Virus record (IMG/VR): IMGVR_UViG_3300050821_010409
Location: 30,160-94,159 of that record
Origin: a virus
Lineage: Duplodnaviria > Heunggongvirae > Uroviricota > Caudoviricetes
Strand: one strand, 5' to 3'
DNA: 64,000 bases
This document shows, piece by piece, positions 3,001 to 42,212 of the stretch. The notes beneath the pieces were generated by a model. The model saw only the letters and a list, made by a program, of their open reading frames with translations, searched no databases and was not told the DNA's origin. Position 1 is the stretch's first letter; each line of letters begins with the position of its first letter. Made by a program: the position numbers and the translations under genes.

Positions 3001-3258
3001 CTCGTCAACGTCCCGGGGGGAAACACCTACGCCAACATGTTCATTGACGAGCCGACCATCGAGTATGACCTGGGCCGCATCCTCGGCTCCGACCTGGACC
3101 GGTCGCAGTCTGTCAGCCTGCTGGACGCCGCCATCATCTCCGGCTCGCCGTTCTACATCACGCCAGGGGACAACCTGTTCCTTGCCTACGCCGTGGAAGG
3201 CGCTCCCGATCTCGCTTTGTCGTACCTTTCGCGGTGGTACCTGGAGAGGCAGGTGTGA
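37..3258 (+). CDS. glycine-rich minor tail / tail-fibre protein (1073 aa)
   Basis: Long ORF with poly-Gly tracts. Repeated module W-CPAGVT-V..CWGGG..GGGGGG-YAAE occurs twice and again in the next ORF. Internal duplication VTAHGG..TGG.GGTGSANTTH(H/N)NGGAGG. Composition is typical of actinophage minor tail proteins. Confidence 0.6.
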   Translation: MADSLVIADIIEVLGAGSGVQSDIPALVNAAGTGAVFRLLAPSSTGGTALGSQLAWDLGAPDPTTDLVQSLLLDGERPFGVRASNRTITLPVKITAPDQATLSAAKEFLIQAIDAPTWTLTWTPASTGLAQVFDCFRALPTVYSYGFLPGQPSPIAIITLQFQALPYIRSAPDALTNVAFASPILGGIAAPPAPVILDNFAAVSGANWTSSTQFVVGPHSAHYQPPNATYVPVTYAKSGLSFDITGLTALSVWLGQSYDTTHWGAPAATFASNVTMRWTLTDAFSNKLTFSRTMSKVPWSNKATTPKWTRVTAPVPQGVAHFTYTQVASYSVTLSNWAGGGKTAYVRMNAWLDSVTANPPSLAAPASQRGVMYNVMGVPGTARTPVSCQFQLPQSGNVSIELEGSGVWWPPVGVTSVKAECIGGGGSGGTRSTSGQGGGGGGGEYAAEAALTVAEGTPVPFSCGTGGQPGAAQQSVTFTVSGGGNWTCPAGVTTVLAECWGGGARGADGGGGGGGGEYAAEPSLAVTAGKTYKFSVGAGGIFVQNSASKANGQPSSFTGDSVTVTAHGGVIPTTGGTTGGTGGTGSANTTHHNGGAGGTSPSYAGGGGGGGGGTAAGGNAGSNGSGNTGGAGAVAVTGGGAGGAGANNPGFPVTGSGPGGGGGGGYGNLGNQPGAAGAAGQVKVTYTVAGGSAVNGGTTTFGSAATTGAVVTAHGGSSVALNTATGGAGGTGSANTTHNNGGAGGAGSTNGGGGGGSGGSGSAGNAGTIGSSGGAGATAVTGGGKGANGGTAAVDVGDGASPPGGGGGGAVTTGATEAGGAGGNGNVVLTWTPPLAPFATLIAHRPGAQSPPELNPIVPIGNTSDTPSGTQYVVSSLVAGVNAQFNGTYTVVLTAYNWNSPSSARSVTVTVNQSEYLGGNTYASSVARTFTPSTDITNGIVVMGELTLPVKYVDPSNTSASFSVSITDTNTADQFLDVIFLDTQGSSVLVNVPGGNTYANMFIDEPTIEYDLGRILGSDLDRSQSVSLLDAAIISGSPFYITPGDNLFLAYAVEGAPDLALSYLSRWYLERQV

Positions 3259-3288
3259 AAATGTTCATTTTCCCGTTGGGGGCGACTG

Positions 3289-5505
3289 ATGCCCGGGCCC
3301 AATGACCCGTCCCTGGTGGCGAAGGCGCTGTCCAAGGCGCAGGCCGTCGAAAGCCGGCTGAACGCGCTGGTGGGGAACCAGGGGCAGCCCTTCGTGGTCT
3401 ACAACCCGTCGGTGACCGTTGTCACGCAGAACGTGGCCGGGAGCTACACCTGGACGTGCCCGGCCGGGGTGACGGTTGTGCAGGTTCAGTGCTGGGGAGC
3501 GGGCGGCGGCGGCGACGGCGGCAACGCCACCACGGGCGCGGCTGGCGGCGGCGGCGGCGCGTACGCCGAGGAGACCTTCTACCCTGTCGTGCCCGGCACC
3601 GTCTACAGCTACGTGGTCGGCGACGGCGGCGATGGCGCGCTGTCGAATGCCGGCCAGGGCTGCCCAGGCGGCCCGAGCTACTTTGACCTGGGCGGCGTGT
3701 CCGGCGGCCCGGGCGTCTTCGCCAATGGCGGCGGCGCGGGAGTGAGCCTGGTTGGCGGCACGGGCGGCGCGGCCACGCCAGGGCAGCTCATCTCCTGGGC
3801 GGGCGGCAACGGCGGCGGTGACGGCACCCAGTCCACCGGCGGCTGCGGTGGCGGTTCCTCTGCCAGCACTGTCAGCAACGGCAACAACGGCGCCAAGTCT
3901 GCCTCCGGCACGGGAGGCGCTGGCGGCGCGGACACGCACGGCGCCAACCAGGGAGCCGGCGGCAACGGCGGGAACTCAGGCGCCACCGGCTCAGACGGCA
4001 ATTCCCCGGGTGCCGGGTCGGGCGGCGTCGGGGCCTCATCGGTGCCTGCAGGCCTGGTCATCGAGAACTACAATCCCACCGCTTCTGCCACGTACTACGG
4101 CAGCGACGCCATCGGCGGCAACGCCAACAACAAGGACGCCGCCGTCGGCGCGGTGATGTGGCAGGGCGGCACCGGCACCAGTGACGGCCTGTACGCCGGG
4201 ACGCTGAAGTCCGTCATGATCTTGCCGTCATCGGTGCAGTCCGACCTGAGCGGCGTCACCGTCGACAACGTCCTGCTGACGGTGTCCAACGTCAGCACGT
4301 ACTACAGCGCCGGGGTGACCGTGGCCCTGGGCTTCGCGGCCTTCACCGCGCTGCCTGCCACCTTCGACGGCGTGACGGGCGTCACCAGCGCCCTGACGTT
4401 CACCGCGCCGCAAGGCGCCGTCCACGTCCAGCAGGCATCGGACCCGCTGGCCGTCCCGCTGGGGTCCGGGACGGCCAAGGCCCTCGTCTTCGGGCCGGGC
4501 CCGAACCTCCTGGACCTCACGTACTACGGGTCCTTCGCCGGCGCCGGGCAGTCCGGGGCGCCGCTGCTGACGGTCGTGGGCCATACCGGATCCGCGCCCA
4601 TCCACAGCGGCGACGGCTCAGACGGCCAGGTCCAGGTCACCTACGTGACCAACGGCGCGGCCATCGGCGCCATGCAGCCCGCGGCCGGGTCGGACGCGGC
4701 CGGGAACGCCTTCAGCTCTGGCTTCTCCGGGCAGGTCAGCGCCTTCGTGCCCGGCTCCAACCCGCGCCAGCTGGAAGTGCCCAACGCGGCCAGCTTCGTC
4801 AACAGCTGGACCGGGTCCCTGCAGTACAAGATGCTGCCGTTCAACTGCGTGATGATCTCCGGCCAGGTCACCCCGCCCGGTGGCGTGGCCAATCCCTCCA
4901 ACGTCAACACCGCGCTGAGCACCTCCTACCGGCCTAACAGCACGCAGTACCTGAATGCCGTGGAGGACCCGGGCGGCGCGCACCTGGGGCAGGCGCTGAT
5001 CTGCCAGATGCAGACCAGCGGGCAGATCCAGGTCTTTGACGCCACGGCCGGGGAGGCCATCCGCATCTTCGGCATTTACCCCCTTGACTTCTTATGCGTG
5101 CCCACCCTGAGGAAAGGCGCCGATGATGGCCCTGTTCACCGCAGTCTCCAATGCGGGACTGGTCACCCAGAACGCGACCGAGGTCGCCCGCAACGTCCGG
5201 GACGCCCTGACCGCTGCCGTCAACTTCTACGCGTGGCTGTCCGCGCAATCCGATGGCGACCTTCAGGGCGCGAGCATTTCCACGGGCGACATCGCGTTCA
5301 TGCGGTCCATGGCCGCGGACCTGAACGCTTTCGCCAACATCTACCACGGCCAGGCGCCGGGCGGGAATTACGTGCTTCCCTACCCGTTCGTGAACTCATC
5401 CACCGAAGTAATCGGCGCGCAGTAGAGGAGCAGCCGCGCCTTCGCACGCCGTCGTCACGGCAGCGGCACGAAGGCCGCAGCGCGGCTGCCCATATCACAG
5501 TGTAG
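3289..5505 (+). CDS. second glycine-rich minor tail protein; the true C-terminus is probably near 5110-5125, and the ORF tail beyond that looks off-frame
   Basis: Shares the WTCPAGVTVVQVQCWGAGGGG..YAEE module with the first ORF. Translation after ~5110 turns Arg-rich with no stop until 5505, while a clean ORF with an RBS runs in another frame from 5123. Confidence 0.5.
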   Translation: MPGPNDPSLVAKALSKAQAVESRLNALVGNQGQPFVVYNPSVTVVTQNVAGSYTWTCPAGVTVVQVQCWGAGGGGDGGNATTGAAGGGGGAYAEETFYPVVPGTVYSYVVGDGGDGALSNAGQGCPGGPSYFDLGGVSGGPGVFANGGGAGVSLVGGTGGAATPGQLISWAGGNGGGDGTQSTGGCGGGSSASTVSNGNNGAKSASGTGGAGGADTHGANQGAGGNGGNSGATGSDGNSPGAGSGGVGASSVPAGLVIENYNPTASATYYGSDAIGGNANNKDAAVGAVMWQGGTGTSDGLYAGTLKSVMILPSSVQSDLSGVTVDNVLLTVSNVSTYYSAGVTVALGFAAFTALPATFDGVTGVTSALTFTAPQGAVHVQQASDPLAVPLGSGTAKALVFGPGPNLLDLTYYGSFAGAGQSGAPLLTVVGHTGSAPIHSGDGSDGQVQVTYVTNGAAIGAMQPAAGSDAAGNAFSSGFSGQVSAFVPGSNPRQLEVPNAASFVNSWTGSLQYKMLPFNCVMISGQVTPPGGVANPSNVNTALSTSYRPNSTQYLNAVEDPGGAHLGQALICQMQTSGQIQVFDATAGEAIRIFGIYPLDFLCVPTLRKGADDGPVHRSLQCGTGHPERDRGRPQRPGRPDRCRQLLRVAVRAIRWRPSGREHFHGRHRVHAVHGRGPERFRQHLPRPGAGRELRASLPVRELIHRSNRRAVEEQPRLRTPSSRQRHEGRSAAAHITV
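5123..5425 (+). CDS. small hypothetical protein (100 aa), possibly a tail assembly or C-terminal tail-fibre segment
   Basis: RBS GAGGAAAGG lies 6 nt before ATGATG; the amino-acid sequence looks native; it overlaps the tail of the 3289 ORF in another frame. Confidence 0.4.
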   Translation: MMALFTAVSNAGLVTQNATEVARNVRDALTAAVNFYAWLSAQSDGDLQGASISTGDIAFMRSMAADLNAFANIYHGQAPGGNYVLPYPFVNSSTEVIGAQ

Positions 5506-17308: not shown

Positions 17309-17344
17309 CCGTTCATGCCTGCGCAGAGGCAAGAGAACTGCGAC
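17309..17344 (+). repeat. solitary CRISPR repeat unit S1 (31/36 match) directly abutting the ATG of the exonuclease gene
   Basis: ccgttcATGCCTGCGCAGAGGCAAGAGAACTGCGAC, then ATG at 17345; identical to array repeat positions 7-36. Confidence 0.9.
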
Positions 17345-30144: not shown

Positions 30145-30336
30145 GTGGTGAACGGCGAGCTGGTCGCGGAGCTCATCCGCGCGCACTACGACGGCGACGA
30201 GGCGCGCTTCAGCGTCCTGGCACGCCAGGCCATCGCATCAGAGGAACTGCACGGCAGCGCGGAAGTGGCGCAGCGGCTGCGTGAGGTAGCCGCTGCGCCA
30301 CTGAAGGGCACAGCCTCCGGTCAGCCGCTCTTGTAG
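30145..30336 (+). CDS. hypothetical small protein
   Basis: Native-looking helical sequence. Confidence 0.35.
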   Translation: MVNGELVAELIRAHYDGDEARFSVLARQAIASEELHGSAEVAQRLREVAAAPLKGTASGQPLL

Positions 30337-37278: not shown

Positions 37279-37884
37279 ATGAGCTGGACTGTGCCCGGCG
37301 GCGGCGCGGGCAGCGGCCTGTGGCCGGCCGGGCGATCGGCGACCATGACGCGGCCGGTGACGCCTGATGATGACCGGGAGGTGCTGCCTGCCCGGGTGGC
37401 GGGCGATGGCCCGCTGGCTGGCAGTGAGCCCGTGGCCGTGCTGGGCTGCGACCCGGGCACGTGCACCGGGATGGCGTTCCTGCCCCCGCACGGGCCGCTG
37501 ACAGCCTTCCAGTGCAGCGGGCACGCGGCGGCCTGGCTGGCGCGGCAGCTGCTGGAGGCCAGTGAGGGAGCCCGGGTCATCGCGGCCGGCGAGGCGTTCG
37601 TCCCCGGCCCCGGCACCGGGCGCGATGCCACCGTCACCCGGCAGGTGATCACGAGCCTGGACGGCGTGGCGCGCTGGCACTGGCGCCCGGCGGGCGAGGT
37701 GAAGGCCTGGGCGACGGATGAGCGGCTGCGCATCGCCGGGATGCTGGCGCTGACGGCCAAGATGCCGCGGGACGCCCGGGACGCGTGCCGGCACCTGCTG
37801 TTCTGCGCCGTGCATGACTGCGGGATGCCGGACCCGCTGGCGCGCGGCGCGGTGGCCTGGTGGAAGGACCGGGCGCGGTCATGA
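37279..37884 (+). CDS. RuvC-like Holliday junction resolvase
   Basis: VLGCDPGTCTGMAFL matches the RuvC N-terminal motif (ILGIDPG..G.A); the start may be the internal ATG at 37345. Confidence 0.5.
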   Translation: MSWTVPGGGAGSGLWPAGRSATMTRPVTPDDDREVLPARVAGDGPLAGSEPVAVLGCDPGTCTGMAFLPPHGPLTAFQCSGHAAAWLARQLLEASEGARVIAAGEAFVPGPGTGRDATVTRQVITSLDGVARWHWRPAGEVKAWATDERLRIAGMLALTAKMPRDARDACRHLLFCAVHDCGMPDPLARGAVAWWKDRARS

Positions 37885-38234
37885 GCGTGCGCCAGTGGGC
37901 CAGCGCGGACGGCTGGACGCTCACGCTCACCTCCGCTTCCCGCCAGGCCGGGTCGTTCCGGAGCTGGCCGGAGTACCGCCTCCACGGCGTGGCGTGCACG
38001 GTCCCGCAAGCGCAGGAGATCGTAGCATGGCGCGAGGCCTGCACCTGCGGGGGAATCGCCGCCTGCGTGGTGCTGAATGACATCCGGGTCACCGAGGAGG
38101 AAGCGCTCATGCTCATCAACGGCACGGACGTGATGACGCTCCTGCTGCACGGCAGCACGACGCCAGCGGTGCCAGCGGTGCCGGCGCGGCTGCGCGCCCG
38201 GAAGCTGACGATGGCGGAACTGGGGGCGCGGTGA
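37881..38234 (+). CDS. small protein ending ..LRARKLTMAELGAR*
   Basis: ATGA coupling; C-terminus encoded by junction repeat J1. Confidence 0.4.
   Translation: MSVRQWASADGWTLTLTSASRQAGSFRSWPEYRLHGVACTVPQAQEIVAWREACTCGGIAACVVLNDIRVTEEEALMLINGTDVMTLLLHGSTTPAVPAVPARLRARKLTMAELGAR
38191..38234 (+). repeat. junction repeat J1 (TGCGCGCCCGGAAGCTGACGATGGCGGAACTGGGGGCGCGGTGA)
   Basis: ~30-bp near-identical DNA element at the gene 3' end / next start; encodes RARKLTMAELGAR*. Confidence 0.85.
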
Positions 38235-38467
38235 ACGACGACGGTTCCTTCACGGCCTGGATCATGACGCGGTACGTGAACTGCGCCCTGGTCACCGCGG
38301 ACGAGGCCCGGGCCCTCCTGGGGCTGGGCAGCAGCGGCGAGTATGCCCCCGAGCCATGGCCGTGCCTGCCGGGAGAGCCCTGGGGCACCGTCACGGGTGC
38401 CTGGCGCCGCCCGGCCCCGGTGCTGCGCGCCCGGAAGCTGACGATGGCGGAACTAGGGGCGCGCTGA
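38231..38467 (+). CDS. small protein ending ..LRARKLTMAELGAR*
   Basis: GTGA coupling; C-terminus encoded by J2. Confidence 0.4.
   Translation: MNDDGSFTAWIMTRYVNCALVTADEARALLGLGSSGEYAPEPWPCLPGEPWGTVTGAWRRPAPVLRARKLTMAELGAR
38424..38467 (+). repeat. junction repeat J2
   Basis: tgcgcgcccggaagctgacgatggcggaactaggggcgcgctga. Confidence 0.85.
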
Positions 38468-38778
38468 TGGCCCGCATCTCCGGGCGGGCAGGCTGGGCGA
38501 TCACCCTGGACCCGTACCGGGCCTTCCAGGAGCGCTGGGTCCTGGACGGGATCAGGATGACGATGGCGTGCGCGCAGGACGTCGTGGCGGCCCGGCCCGG
38601 CCTGACCGTCAGCTACAGCATGCGGGACAGCGGCACGGCCGACGTGATCGAGCTGTCCGGCATTGAGCTGACGGCCGCTGAGGCGCGGGCAATCGCCCAT
38701 GGCGCTGACCCGGTGACGGTGCTGCTGCCCGGCTGGCCGCGCGCCCGGAAGCTGACGATGGCGGAGCTGACGGCATGA
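38467..38778 (+). CDS. small protein ending ..RARKLTMAELTA*
   Basis: TGATG coupling; C-terminus encoded by J3. Confidence 0.4.
   Translation: MARISGRAGWAITLDPYRAFQERWVLDGIRMTMACAQDVVAARPGLTVSYSMRDSGTADVIELSGIELTAAEARAIAHGADPVTVLLPGWPRARKLTMAELTA
38739..38778 (+). repeat. junction repeat J3
   Basis: gcgcgcccggaagctgacgatggcggagctgacggcatga. Confidence 0.85.
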
Positions 38779-39038
38779 TGAAGGTCCGCACCCGGGCCCG
38801 GGAAGGCACGGCGCTGCGCTTCAGCGGCGACATCACCGCGGACTGGGCCGCCATCTCGGCGATGGCCGGCCCGCACGCCAGCATTGAAGACGGGAAGGTC
38901 ATCATCAGCTGCCCGGTCACGCTCAACCGCACGGAGCTGAAGCCCGGCTGGCTGCTGCTGGCCCTGGACGGCGCGGACGGCCGCCTTGTCTTGACCCCCA
39001 TGGCCTTCCGGCAGCAGTTCGAGGAGCTGGCGCCATGA
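38775..39038 (+). CDS. hypothetical protein
   Basis: ATGA coupling. A 30-bp duplicate of its own 5' end (ATGATGAAGGCCCGCACC) follows at 39035. Confidence 0.4.
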   Translation: MMKVRTRAREGTALRFSGDITADWAAISAMAGPHASIEDGKVIISCPVTLNRTELKPGWLLLALDGADGRLVLTPMAFRQQFEELAP

Positions 39039-39260
39039 TGAAGGCCCGCACCTGGGGAATCCCGTGAGCGCGGCGCGGCTGGCGTTCGAGGCCCGGCTGT
39101 GGTGCCAGGGCCTGTGGCTGGCGGCGTGGGACTGCGGCATTGCCGGCGCCGTCGTGGTCCTCGTCCTGGTCACCGGGTACCCGGTGATGCTCGTTACCGC
39201 GTGCCTGATGGCGCACTGGCTGCTGGGGACCCGGCTGTAGCCGGAGGAGGGAGCTGGCCC

Positions 39261-39683
39261 GTGGACGCCGGGCCCTGCACGTGCTGCGGCCGGGTGCTGC
39301 TGCTGCCCTACCGCCGCCAGGGCTGGTGCGCGTCGTGCTACAGCCGCTGGCGCGCGCTGGGCAAGCCGCCGTCCCTGCCGCCGCCCGCGCGCCAGGGCGC
39401 GCCGCGCACCCGGCTGCTGGCAGCCTGCCCGTCGTGCGGCAACGACGAGGGCGGCTACTGCCGGGGCTGGTGCGCACGCTGCTACCGGCGCTGGCTGCGC
39501 ACGGGCCGGCCGGAGCAGGGGCCGCCACCGCCGCAGCGTAGCCTGGACAAGGCCGGGCACCTGGCTGACTGCCAGTACCTGCTGGAGCAGGGCATCACCA
39601 GCGCGGCAGAGCTGGCCCGGCGCCTCGGCGTGCACCCCGACACGGTGCGCGGCTACCTGCGCGAGCTGAGGACGCGGCCCTGA
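39261..39683 (+). CDS. zinc-finger plus C-terminal HTH DNA-binding protein
   Basis: RBS GGAGGAGGG; two CxxC..CxxC pairs; ITSAAELARRLGVHPDTVRGYLREL. Confidence 0.45.
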   Translation: MDAGPCTCCGRVLLLPYRRQGWCASCYSRWRALGKPPSLPPPARQGAPRTRLLAACPSCGNDEGGYCRGWCARCYRRWLRTGRPEQGPPPPQRSLDKAGHLADCQYLLEQGITSAAELARRLGVHPDTVRGYLRELRTRP

Positions 39684-39985
39684 TGGCGGCCCGGCACTGG
39701 ACGCTTGACCAGGAGCGCAACGCGCAGCGCGACGTCACGGGCTGGCGGCTGGCCATGCGGGCCCGGACCAGGGACGAGGAACGGCTGCTCGCCGCCTGCG
39801 GGCTGACCGTGGCTGAAGGCTGGCTGCGCGGCGCCTTCGTCACGCAAGAACAGGCCGAGGCCATCATCGGCGGCGCGGACCCGCTGGAGGTGCTGCTGGA
39901 GCAGCGCTCGCCGCTGCGCGCCCGGAAGCTGACGATGGCGGAGCTGACCGGGCACCCGGCTGCTGGCACGGCAGGCCGCTGCTGA
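39683..39985 (+). CDS. small protein containing ..LRARKLTMAELTGHPAAGTAGRC*
   Basis: Contains junction repeat J4. Confidence 0.4.
   Translation: MAARHWTLDQERNAQRDVTGWRLAMRARTRDEERLLAACGLTVAEGWLRGAFVTQEQAEAIIGGADPLEVLLEQRSPLRARKLTMAELTGHPAAGTAGRC
39916..39947 (+). repeat. junction repeat J4
   Basis: gcgcgcccggaagctgacgatggcggagctga. Confidence 0.8.
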
Positions 39986-40197
39986 TGGCGAAGCCCCGGG
40001 CAGCGCTGACGGCTGGCGACCACGTGATCATCACCAGCCGCGATCATCCCTGGTACGGCAGCACGGGCGTGCTGAGCGCCCGGTTCCACTCGCCGTCCGT
40101 GCCGGGGCTGGCCTGGATCGTGACCCTGGATGACGTCTGGGGCCAGACTGCCGTCGCGGCGGATGAGATTGCCAGGACGGGGCGCGCTCGTGGCTGA
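39985..40197 (+). CDS. hypothetical small protein
   Basis: TGATG coupling. Confidence 0.4.
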   Translation: MAKPRAALTAGDHVIITSRDHPWYGSTGVLSARFHSPSVPGLAWIVTLDDVWGQTAVAADEIARTGRARG

Positions 40198-40206
40198 CAA
40201 TCGTGG

Positions 40207-40242
40207 CTGGCAATGCCTGCGCAGAGGCACGAGAACTGCGAC
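40207..40242 (+). repeat. solitary CRISPR repeat unit S7 (35/36), followed 1 nt later by ATG of a 5-codon ORF
   Basis: ctggcaatgcctgcgcagaggcaCgagaactgcgac gATGGATAGCGGCTGA. Confidence 0.9.
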
Positions 40243-40279
40243 GATGGATAGCGGCTGACACGGCGCAGGGGGGCCAGGC

Positions 40280-41125
40280 TCAGTCCTTGTCCAGGGCCTC
40301 CCGGGCCACCAGCGCATCGTAGTCCTCCTGCTGCGCCAGCGCGTCGTAGGCCGCCCGGATGCGGGCCAGGACAGCGCCCTCAGACCCGCGGCCCTGGATG
40401 GCGCCCGCCAGCTCCCAGGTCCCGGCTGCCTTCATCGCCCGCAGCAGCACCTCCCGGTCCATCTCAGCATTGCCCAGCGCCAGCGCGATGGCCTTGACCA
40501 GCGAGGCGTTGGTGCGCCGGGAGTCGTCATCGGGGAAGCTCTCGCGGATGGCCCGCAGCACCTCGCGCAGCCGCGCCTCGCCGCCGATGCTCAGCACGTA
40601 CTGCCCGGCCGTGATCGACAGCACGTGCGCGGAGTCAGTGCGGTTGCCCAGGGTGAAGCCGTTCTCCTCGTAAGCCTTGTTGATGACGAACGCCGCGCTG
40701 CCGGCGTCGAACTCCACGTCCGCGCGGGCGGCCTCCAGCGGCGTCACCCGCTTGAGCTTCTGCAGCTCCTGGAAGACCCGGTTCTCCTGGGCCGGCGTCA
40801 GGCCGCGCAGCACCCGGCACGGCACCAGGACGTTCGGCCCGAACTTGGCCTGCAGCCAGTGGTTGGAGGAGTTGCCGTCCAGCGTGTAGTACTGCCGGGT
40901 GTCCTCGCGGTAGGACACCACCCGCGGGCGCAGCAGCACCGGGTTGTAGTCGCCGTAGGCCCGTGACCGGGCGCGCAGCGAGGCCTGCCAGCGCACGCTG
41001 TCGGCGGGGCGGTTGCGCTGCGGGCCGTGCAGGTTGGCGAACGCGGACGTCAGGATGCCGACCGGCAGCATGACCTCCTCGTAGTTGACGGCGGGCGCAG
41101 CGGGGTACTCGGTCTTGCGTGCCAT
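40280..41125 (-). CDS. hypothetical protein (281 aa) on the opposite strand
   Basis: RBS AGGAAAGGG; native-looking; lone minus-strand gene inside a plus-strand block. Confidence 0.55.
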   Translation of the reverse strand: MARKTEYPAAPAVNYEEVMLPVGILTSAFANLHGPQRNRPADSVRWQASLRARSRAYGDYNPVLLRPRVVSYREDTRQYYTLDGNSSNHWLQAKFGPNVLVPCRVLRGLTPAQENRVFQELQKLKRVTPLEAARADVEFDAGSAAFVINKAYEENGFTLGNRTDSAHVLSITAGQYVLSIGGEARLREVLRAIRESFPDDDSRRTNASLVKAIALALGNAEMDREVLLRAMKAAGTWELAGAIQGRGSEGAVLARIRAAYDALAQQEDYDALVAREALDKD

Positions 41126-41518
41126 GACGGCCCTTTCCTGTGAGGCGTATGCCAGACTCCATCATACTTTACCTGGTGACGTGGGTTATACTACAAGAGA
41201 CAAAATGGCGATGAAAAGGAGGACGGTCATGGCATGCGACAGCTGCGGCGCGCGGCGCGGGCACCTGCCCGGCAACCGGCGGCGGGGGCGGCGGCCGGAA
41301 GGGGAAGAAGCCCGTTGACAACAAGAAGGACATGCACAAGCACGACTGGACGTTTGACGGCTCGAAGACCGAGCGGCGCGGCAGCGGCCTGTACCTGATC
41401 ATTACCTACAAGTGCCTGAACAAGAACTGCCCTTCCCCGGTCAGCATCGTGGAGAAGAAGGTAGAGGACTGATGACGCGAGCCAGACCGGGAAAGACCCG
41501 GTGCAGTAGGATGACGGC

Positions 41519-41731
41519 ATGCTGACCGGCGACTGGGGCGAGGACCTCCTGCGTGTCCTGGAGGGCCTGGATGAATCACGCCAGGAGATGCTGACCCTGG
41601 AGGCCGCCCTCGCGAAGCTGCGCCAGGAGATGCTGCGGCTGGCGGTACCGGGCTTCCCGGAGCAGGCCTTGCGCCCGGCTGGGCAGCTGCGGGCGCGGAA
41701 GCTGACGATGGCAGAGCTGGCGGGCCGGTGA
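41519..41731 (+). CDS. small coiled-coil protein ending ..QLRARKLTMAELAGR*
   Basis: Contains junction repeat J5. Confidence 0.4.
   Translation: MLTGDWGEDLLRVLEGLDESRQEMLTLEAALAKLRQEMLRLAVPGFPEQALRPAGQLRARKLTMAELAGR
41689..41731 (+). repeat. junction repeat J5
   Basis: gcgggcgcggaagctgacgatggcagagctggcgggccggtga. Confidence 0.8.
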
Positions 41732-41735
41732 CCAG

Positions 41736-42212
41736 GTGACCATGCCGAATGCAGACGCGCCCCGGGTCACCCGGCACCTCCTGCGGATCTTGCGGGTGTT
41801 CCTGGATGATCCCGCGCCGCATTACGGCCGGGAGATCATGCAGCAGGCAGGGCTGACGTCGGGAGTGCTGTACCCGGCCCTGCACCGGGCCGAGAGCGCA
41901 GGCTGGGTGACGTCCTGGTGGGAGGCGCAGGACCCGGTCACGGCCGGGCGCCCGGCGCGGCGCTACTACGCCCTCACCCCGGCTGGCGCGCAGTTCGCCC
42001 GGCGTGAGCTGGCTGAGCTGCAGGGCGCGGCGGCGGATGCGGGCAACGGTGATGAGCTGCTGCGCGACGTCCTGGAGGCCCTGTGCCGGCGCGATGGCCT
42101 CCCCCTGGAGTCCGCCGCTGACCCCGGGGCGCCGGCCCGGAACGATGAGCTGGCGCTGCGGCTGGGCATCGGGCGCGCCTTCGGGCTGGAGGAGCAGGGG
42201 GAAAGCTCATGA
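41736..42212 (+). CDS. PadR-family winged-helix transcriptional regulator
   Basis: HYGREIMQQAGLTSGVLYPALHRAESAGWV..RRYYALTPAG PadR signature. Confidence 0.6.
   Translation: MTMPNADAPRVTRHLLRILRVFLDDPAPHYGREIMQQAGLTSGVLYPALHRAESAGWVTSWWEAQDPVTAGRPARRYYALTPAGAQFARRELAELQGAAADAGNGDELLRDVLEALCRRDGLPLESAADPGAPARNDELALRLGIGRAFGLEEQGESS

Follow-up and report, generated by a model that had tools for sequence, protein, structure and literature searches.

Within a 64,000-nucleotide stretch of a Caudoviricetes virus (IMG/VR record IMGVR_UViG_3300050821_010409, positions 30,160–94,159), hereafter referred to as the window, a 32-nt element occurs five times, each time near the 3′ end of a small gene. A first-pass annotation of this DNA had proposed selection at the DNA or RNA level as the main cause. 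I find instead that the element is coding, and that five related phages keep the encoded peptide with differing codons. I therefore consider it likely that the repeat is a selected C-terminal peptide tail, homogenised by gene conversion, whose last bases overlay a Shine-Dalgarno site, and which has a putative docking role. That it represents a conserved peptide-level C-terminal tail, carried by clade-restricted, multi-copy, apparently early phage proteins, and not an operator or an RNA structure, is proposed with high confidence on the basis of the sequence comparisons described below.

A pattern search of the window retrieved five matches to the 32-nt element, all on the plus strand, and none in 100 dinucleotide-preserving shuffles, confirming the earlier observation of a ~30-bp element present five times in one orientation. 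Copy 1 (38191–38222, no mismatch) is located in the gene labeled g1, copy 2 (38424–38455, one mismatch) in g2, copy 3 (38738–38769, one mismatch) in g3, copy 4 (39915–39946, no mismatch) in g4, 12 residues before the stop, and copy 5 (41688–41719, three mismatches to the consensus, all synonymous) in g5. The copies are spaced by 233 to 1773 bp, all within 3.5 kb, and no sixth copy was identified on either strand of the window, by a six-frame peptide search or by a core-DNA search allowing up to 3 substitutions. All five are in frame and encode (L/P)RARKLTMAEL, 2–12 residues before the stop of small genes, and the common peptide near the C-terminus reported in the first pass therefore stands. 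Within the ten RARKLTMAEL codons all differences are synonymous (GAA/GAG and CTG/CTA, as well as CGG, GCG and GCA in copy 5, where the other copies have CGC, GCC and GCG), contrary to the claim that the copies are identical even at synonymous positions. The sole non-synonymous difference is in the preceding codon, CTG (Leu), which is CCG (Pro) in copy 3.

The genes carrying these tails are all on the plus strand. Three are full-length members of one small-protein family, with the signature WxLT...LDG...G.DP.xVLL, namely g1 (37881–38234, 117 aa, ending in ARLRARKLTMAELGAR), g3 (38467–38778, 103 aa, ending in GWPRARKLTMAELTA) and g4 (39683–39985, 100 aa, ending in SPLRARKLTMAELTGHPAAGTAGRC). The body of g2 is short (38231–38467, 78 aa, ending in PVLRARKLTMAELGAR), and that of g5 is helical-looking (41519–41731, 70 aa, ending in AGQLRARKLTMAELAGR); PAGQLRARKLTMAELAGR is an example of a tail peptide. 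They had been described as five consecutive genes, but only g1, g2 and g3 are adjacent, the g1 stop overlapping the GTG start of g2 (GTGA). Between g3 and g4 lie three other genes, and between g4 and g5 two plus-strand genes and a minus-strand ParB-like gene. The next start codon follows the repeat at a distance of 8, 11, 5, 38 and 22 nt for copies 1–5, respectively, such that the description of each copy as ending within a few nucleotides of the next start applies to the first three and not to the last two.

Similar tails, consisting of a Pro/Gly-rich linker, the motif h-x-(V/A)-R-x-L-(T/S)-x-x-E-L, usually 2–4 further residues and the stop, are found in related phages. A full scan with HMMER, covering 1.84 billion representative proteins, identified P0006, P0008, P0009 and P0010 (E-values of 4e-6 to 5e-4), which are full-length homologues ending in LRARTLTMQELTT, VIRNLTLAELLAP, AVRELTLAELTA and IVRALSLAELMA, respectively. 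The contigs encoding the homologues, labeled L008 (88.8 kb), L009, L010 (4 kb) and L011 (109.7 kb), are syntenic with the window, sharing the RuvC-like, minus-strand DUF6551/ParB-like, methyltransferase, RecD-like helicase and PolA genes, and the presence of DUF397 genes on L008 and L009 hints at an actinobacterial host. Genes ending in the motif number nine in L009, seven in L008, eight in L011 and one in the short L010. Metagenome contigs were also scanned with the neighbouring RuvC-like protein, yielding 33 loci. Tails are present in just two of these, L025 and L026, which are the closest to the window (75% identity for the ParB-like protein, 47% for the RuvC-like protein), with nine tails within 5.8 kb in L025. 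No motif match was found on either strand of the other 31 loci, which represent ~230 kb of similar GC content from more distant relatives. This indicates that the family is restricted to a narrow clade, and provides a false-positive control for the motif.

Contigs of a single phage, one of 129.9 kb and others shorter, all from soil metagenomes, were the only place where the five tailed proteins of the window were found; the other contigs are 99.9–100% identical across the tail region. When the five paralogues were used in a word-indexed protein search, they retrieved only themselves, and neither megablast of the 36–44 kb region nor tblastn of g3 gave a match among 50,697 isolate phages. Pfam, PHROGs and NCBIfam contain no match to the five proteins or their homologues, and no significant PDB match was obtained by sequence profile, or by Foldseek with a model of g3. 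As its members are homologous beyond the repeat and match no curated library, the tailed small-protein family appears to be undescribed. What had looked like a regulatory DNA repeat thus leads to an undescribed protein family, defined by a portable C-terminal tail, in one clade of soil phages. It makes up a sizeable share of the small early genes in this narrow clade of uncultivated high-GC phages.

A degenerate back-translation of RARKLTMAEL gave no match in IMG/VR, and none in the JGI metagenome contigs. Two matches in GTDB, to AbiEi-like antitoxin-type proteins of Lacunisphaera metagenome-assembled genomes (L001, 3648–3676; L002, 7515–7543), were judged to be due to chance; in these WRARKFTMAEL occurs once, internally rather than at the C-terminus, with Phe for Leu. 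A looser pattern, LRARxLTxxEL, gave 13 single matches in IMG/VR, which were rejected, none having multiple tails. Seven of these 13 belong to one family in which Ser replaces the invariant Arg.

Comparison of the tails between phages shows that selection acts on the peptide. Across 22 aligned tails from four genomes (L011 and L025 contribute 17 more), the only invariant positions are codon positions 1 and 2 of the Arg, Leu, Glu and Leu codons; codon position 3 is the least conserved, and conservation is three-periodic. The Thr codon is ACG in 11 of the 22 tails and ACC in 10. In the L011 tails, Arg is encoded by CGG, CGC or AGG and Leu by CTG or TTG, and the residues at the x-positions vary, amino-acid and synonymous variation being both present across the tails of L011 and L025. 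One L025 tail belongs to a minus-strand gene (3190–3438), so the motif tracks the coding sense. The relatives therefore vary the codons but keep the peptide, and within the window copy 5, which is at the neutral codon difference (see below), retains the peptide where the DNA has drifted. The first-pass annotation had suggested checking whether the peptide is conserved where the DNA is not; this was done with homologues and paralogues in five related phages, and the peptide is indeed conserved, with differing codons and with amino-acid changes at the variable positions. That annotation had itself listed such a result as one that would refute its DNA- or RNA-level reading. The window has a GC content of ~70%, and a GC content at third codon positions (GC3) of 0.88. 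When GC3 reaches 88%, matching wobble bases say less about nucleotide-level selection than they appear to, a caution that applies to genome scans.

Within the window, the similarity of copies 1–4 nonetheless goes beyond what codon bias predicts. Based on local codon usage, two independent codings of RARKLTMAEL are expected to differ at 4.15 codons per pair. Copies 1–4 differ at 0–2 codons per pair, with a total of 7 versus 24.9 expected (P = 1.4e-4; the copies are not independent samples, and P values are approximate), and copies 1 and 2 have 45 nt in common up to the stop, with two synonymous differences. Copy 5 differs from the others at 3–5 codons, matching the codon-usage expectation. The excess identity noted earlier is thus upheld for copies 1–4, copy 5 being neutral, but I attribute it to gene conversion. 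At conserved residues in the bodies of g1, g3 and g4, 12/23, 15/23 and 11/20 codons are identical, as expected by chance, versus 8/9, 9/9 and 8/9 in their tails, where 4.9 are expected. That copies 1–4 are near-identical while the bodies are saturated suggests gene conversion or short-patch recombination, and the boundary of identity is sharp, at 30–45 nt.

A comparable pattern is seen in the relatives, where tail identity is 65% within genomes and 53% between genomes (permutation p < 2e-4, with the window left out). Each genome has its own tail flavour: RARKLTMAEL in the window, LRARxLTxxEL in L011, VRAL... in L008, VR(E/S)L... in L009 and (A/V)R(V/A)LT..EL.xR in L025. Four neighbouring L011 tails have the rare AGG codon in common. 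The bodies, compared with the tails removed, are related across genomes (E = 3e-14 between g3 and L010 3348; E = 9e-24 between L008 10001 and L009 5545), and that of g3 is nearer to genes of other genomes (E-values of 1e-11 to 3e-14) than to g1 (1.4e-8) or g4 (3e-4). I conclude with moderate confidence, judging from these codon comparisons, that gene conversion homogenises the tails within a genome. Gene conversion or short-patch recombination would recently have made the 30–45 bp tail segments of neighbouring genes alike, and the high GC3 codon bias would add to the similarity. A 30-bp coding segment homogenised against saturated bodies would offer a clean phage example of concerted evolution on a small scale.

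It has to be considered whether the 30-mers are mainly recombination anchors, used for swapping, duplicating or deleting early-gene cassettes between co-infecting relatives. The number and order of tailed genes differ among the syntenic relatives, unrelated bodies possess the same tail, and neighbouring tails share rare codons. In addition, a 34-nt direct repeat (88% identity between arms) flanks the 87-aa gene 38775–39038. Its first arm (38763–38796, +) combines GGAGCTG, the 7 nt that close copy 3, with the junction and ATGATGAAGGTCCGCACCCGGG, while the second (39023–39056, +) encompasses the 3′ end of this gene and the start of a 10-codon relic open reading frame (ORF) at 39035–39067. This relic (MMKARTWGIP) mirrors the opening residues of gene 38775–39038 (MMKVRT...), and is linked via ATGA and GTGA overlaps to a membrane-protein gene with a GTG start at 39064. 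The gene itself ends in FRQQFEELAP, a degenerate tail-like end, and I read the direct repeat as the footprint of duplication or recombination at a tail junction. There is also a precedent in T4-type phages, where cassettes bounded by promoter-early stem-loops (PeSLs) mediate the modular shuffling of small early genes (PMC2839356, PMC4122927). As with PeSLs, the tail repeat is located at the borders of small, variable early genes, mostly without assigned function, and is a likely recombination substrate. However, PeSLs are non-coding promoter-plus-terminator units (PMC2839356, PMC4122927), while the tail repeat shows no promoter-like site or hairpin signal, and encodes a selected peptide. No tail-bounded insertion or deletion was found between any pair of genomes close enough to be aligned, the other contigs of this phage being 99.9–100% identical here and the relatives too divergent for breakpoints to be mapped, and peptide-level selection keeps the sequence for the protein, with recombination possibly a by-product. 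Anchoring as the main role of the repeat is therefore improbable, but such a role is compatible with a selected peptide tail, as its consequence.

A scenario in which whole genes were duplicated in tandem very recently and their bodies then diverged fast, with no gene conversion, fits these data poorly and is quite unlikely. It would account for the fact that g1, g3, g4 and part of g2 are paralogues, and the 34-nt direct repeat shows that local duplication does occur. However, the bodies have reached saturation at synonymous sites and the tails are near-identical, genes of other phages resemble the g3 body more closely than its own paralogues do, and the boundary of identity is sharp. Furthermore, g2 has an orthologue in L008 (3062–3232, GEYA..TGAWRRPPP), which there possesses an L008-type tail. 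The paralogues therefore predate the split of the phages, yet the tails match within each genome.

A second layer of constraint is suggested by the position of the tails relative to the next gene. In nearly all cases, the stop codon of the tail gene overlaps the start codon of the following gene, as ATGA or GTGA (RTGA). The Glu codon directly follows a G in 24 of 30 tails, versus a background frequency of 0.446 (P = 8e-5), and GGAG, formed by this G and the Glu-Leu codons GAG CTG, is present in 20 of the 30, in most cases 8–11 nt upstream of the overlap. In copy 3, the next gene starts at an overlapping ATG (ATGA) that GGAG precedes by 8 nt, and copies 1 and 2 have GGAA, then GGGG. As a pattern across the tails, the final bases thus appear to double as the Shine-Dalgarno site of the coupled next gene. 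This probably fixes the distance from the Glu-Leu pair to the stop, which is 2–4 residues in 23 of the 30 tails, and 5–23 residues in the other seven. It is also where ordinary phage translational coupling resembles the tails, with a Shine-Dalgarno site inside the upstream 3′ end and ATGA or GTGA overlaps. However, such a site accounts for 4–5 nt and the stop spacing, not for an 11-residue peptide or for tails with no coupled downstream gene (L008 10294, L008 5699 and L011 6122). The eight conserved codons upstream, the uncoupled tails and the cases at 5–23 residues indicate that coupling alone is insufficient. The earlier suggestion of a translational coupling element is therefore retained for the GGAG in the final bases, at Shine-Dalgarno distance, but leaves the eight upstream codons unexplained.

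The GGAG enrichment could also be taken to indicate an RNA-level element (a structured RNA, a processing site, or a standby or coupling element for reinitiation) to which the peptide is incidental, and local hairpins can be drawn for copies 1 and 2, between GCGCGCCC and a downstream GGGCGCG. I consider this very unlikely: RNA folding of the five 92-nt contexts gave z-scores of −0.59 to +0.87, with no structure signal, RNAalifold identified no conserved pair across 23 junctions, and no Rfam match was found in the window. The RNA structure raised in the first pass was thus not recovered. Moreover, conservation extends ~25 nt beyond any Shine-Dalgarno site on its 5′ side and is seen in the amino acids, some tails have no coupled gene or lie 5–23 residues from the stop, and the gaps to the next start in the window range from 5 to 38 nt. 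No sigma-70-like site was detected between 36.5 and 43.5 kb, and no terminator-like site at any copy.

A DNA-level protein-binding site that happens to lie in coding sequence (a stoperator or operator, a parS-like site for the ParB-like protein, or an iteron) is very improbable: although there are five copies in the same orientation with 0–3 mismatches in close proximity, with a PadR gene directly downstream of copy 5, a ParB-like gene between copies 4 and 5, and an excess of identity over codon bias in copies 1–4, all copies are in one frame and at the same protein position, conservation is three-periodic with relatives altering the DNA and keeping the peptide, copy 5, which adjoins PadR, is at the neutral synonymous expectation, a tail gene is on the minus strand in L025, no copy is found in non-coding DNA or elsewhere in the 64 kb, and the element is not palindromic, its spacing being unlike that of iterons. 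Iterons and parS sites were dropped for these last two reasons. The L5-type mycobacteriophage stoperators, with which the repeat had been compared, are asymmetric sites of 13 bp, bound by the repressor and all oriented the same way relative to transcription. There is a resemblance, in that many short copies of the same orientation are found near gene junctions of a high-GC phage with an apparently actinobacterial host. In contrast to stoperators, however, the tail copies are all coding, frame-locked and confined to 3.5 kb, with none intergenic, and the relatives keep the peptide rather than the DNA. The stoperator proposal is therefore unsupported.

The proteins that possess the tail are diverse. 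The bodies of g1, g3, g4 and many of their relatives, with tails removed, have in common a ~90-residue pattern, W.LT...LDG..T..A... LNGI.VT..EA..I..G.DP.AVLL. No similarity to this body could be detected in g5, in several genes of 50–60 aa or in a 149-aa protein, and g5 has only the tail in common with g1–g4. In the relatives, the tail is also found on a dCMP deaminase (L011 4157–4603, PF00383 at residues 9–128 of 148), on a RuvC-like protein (L025 10–585) and on a small membrane protein (L025 3190–3438, minus strand). Some of the tailed bodies give no BLAST hit to one another. The tail thus occurs on both homologous and unrelated bodies, and is absent from more distant relatives. This favours a shared C-terminal protein tag, which the first-pass annotation had also raised. 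A Pro/Gly-rich stretch precedes almost every tail. An AlphaFold2 model of g3, obtained from an alignment of 7 sequences (predicted local distance difference test score, pLDDT, of 75; predicted template modelling score of 0.63), comprises a beta/alpha body (residues 1–86), a coil (residues 87–97, pLDDT ~59) and a short helix (residues 98–102). Taken together, the tail appears to behave as a portable C-terminal module on a flexible linker.

The presence of the tail on enzymes and on unrelated bodies, the linker, and the genome-specific flavour suggest a docking or address role, and I propose, with lower confidence, that the tail may be a docking peptide for a common partner. Such a tail, on its flexible linker, would bring different early proteins to one partner, the recruited set including the RuvC-like protein and the dCMP deaminase in the relatives, and the flavour of each genome would reflect co-evolution with the partner, gene conversion, or both. 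A more specific version is tentative, and on balance I do not expect it to hold in full. In this, the tail would be an address label for a single hub, for example the replication machinery or a host factor, and a set of early proteins, both small effectors and enzymes, would co-evolve with the hub as a unit. Gene conversion would keep the labels identical, and the 30-bp homologies would spread the label, allowing new genes to gain it and cassettes to move between co-infecting phages. If the tail is indeed a docking peptide, one pull-down would give the common partner of dozens of proteins that have no assigned function.

Several observations count against this interpretation, or limit it. Between genomes, codon identity at conserved tail residues is 0.66, versus 0.50 expected, suggesting some nucleotide-level preference beyond the peptide, for G-ending codons or for the Shine-Dalgarno site. 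No conversion tract is seen in the population data, in which contigs of the same phage are 99.9–100% identical, and the non-independence of the copies was indicated above. The low model confidence for the g3 tail fits disorder but is no proof of it, as the alignment is shallow, with only seven sequences. Finally, docking is only a candidate function of the tail.

Further explanations were considered and dropped. A C-terminal degron was dropped because the last residues vary, and a nascent-peptide arrest signal because the stop follows at differing distances. An antisense or alternative-frame ORF was also dropped, as only the long spurious ORFs expected in GC-rich DNA are present.

Terminal peptides with such roles are known in other systems. 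The capsid-targeting sequence on T4 internal proteins is one analogy; the acidic C-terminal tails of T7 gp2.5 and gp4 dock on the polymerase, the C-terminal peptide of SspB binds ClpX, and poxvirus ankyrin paralogues possess a C-terminal PRANC/F-box. As in these, the tail is a short conserved end that follows a probably flexible linker, and is portable between several bodies, but the analogy is functional only. It has no sequence similarity to these motifs and, unlike them, its DNA appears homogenised within a genome and overlaps the ribosome-binding site of the next gene.

The tailed genes are interspersed with others. Between g3 and g4, a 140-aa protein (39261–39683, +) matches the PHROG "HNH endonuclease" (E = 1.8e-10), and possesses two Cys-rich GWCxxCYxRW motifs, encoded by a 36-nt internal repeat (39316 and 39460), and a C-terminal helix-turn-helix. 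Between copies 4 and 5, a 281-aa ParB-like nuclease/DUF6551 protein (40280–41125, −) is a remote match, with 25% identity, to ParB-like nuclease proteins of Gordonia and Mycobacterium phages. It is encoded by the only minus-strand gene of the block, and its position is kept in all the larger relatives. The PadR gene downstream of copy 5 spans positions 41742–42212 of the window, and the RuvC-like protein of the window itself (37279–37884) has no tail. A phage origin is indicated by other products of the window, among them glycine-rich tail-fibre-like proteins, an SNF2 helicase, a RecD-like helicase, a Cas12f1/TnpB-like protein and a large polymerase of the PolA type.

The Cas12f1/TnpB-like protein is encoded by a 528-aa ORF (45242–46828, +; Pfam PF07282), with Cas12f and Cas14a.1 as best relatives in the PDB (E-values of 4e-5 to 1e-4). 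Directly downstream is an array resembling clustered regularly interspaced short palindromic repeats (CRISPR), at 46960–48513 (+). It consists of 22 copies of a ~36-nt repeat, CTGGCAATGCCTGCGCAGAGGCAAGAGAACTGCGAC, separated by variable spacers of ~35 nt, with a period of 71–75 nt; a 406-aa ORF called across it is probably spurious. The spacers have no match in the tails, in the window or in the related loci. The array is a separate feature from the tails, and may well be the more interesting one. L004, a contig of the same phage (ENA ERZ27253725), is identical to the window up to 47449 and then diverges inside the array, indicating that array content or length differs between samples. Eight solitary CRISPR-like repeats (up to 2 mismatches in 30 nt) were also identified, at 17315, 19305, 22942 (minus strand), 28029, 35475, 36748, 40213 and 43127. 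These are mostly located just past the ends of gene blocks, such as those of the SNF2 helicase, of gene 39985–40197 and of the methyltransferase, and could be putative RNA-processing or regulatory sites for the Cas12f-like protein. Within the array, one spacer is present twice, after the repeats at 47257 and 47907.

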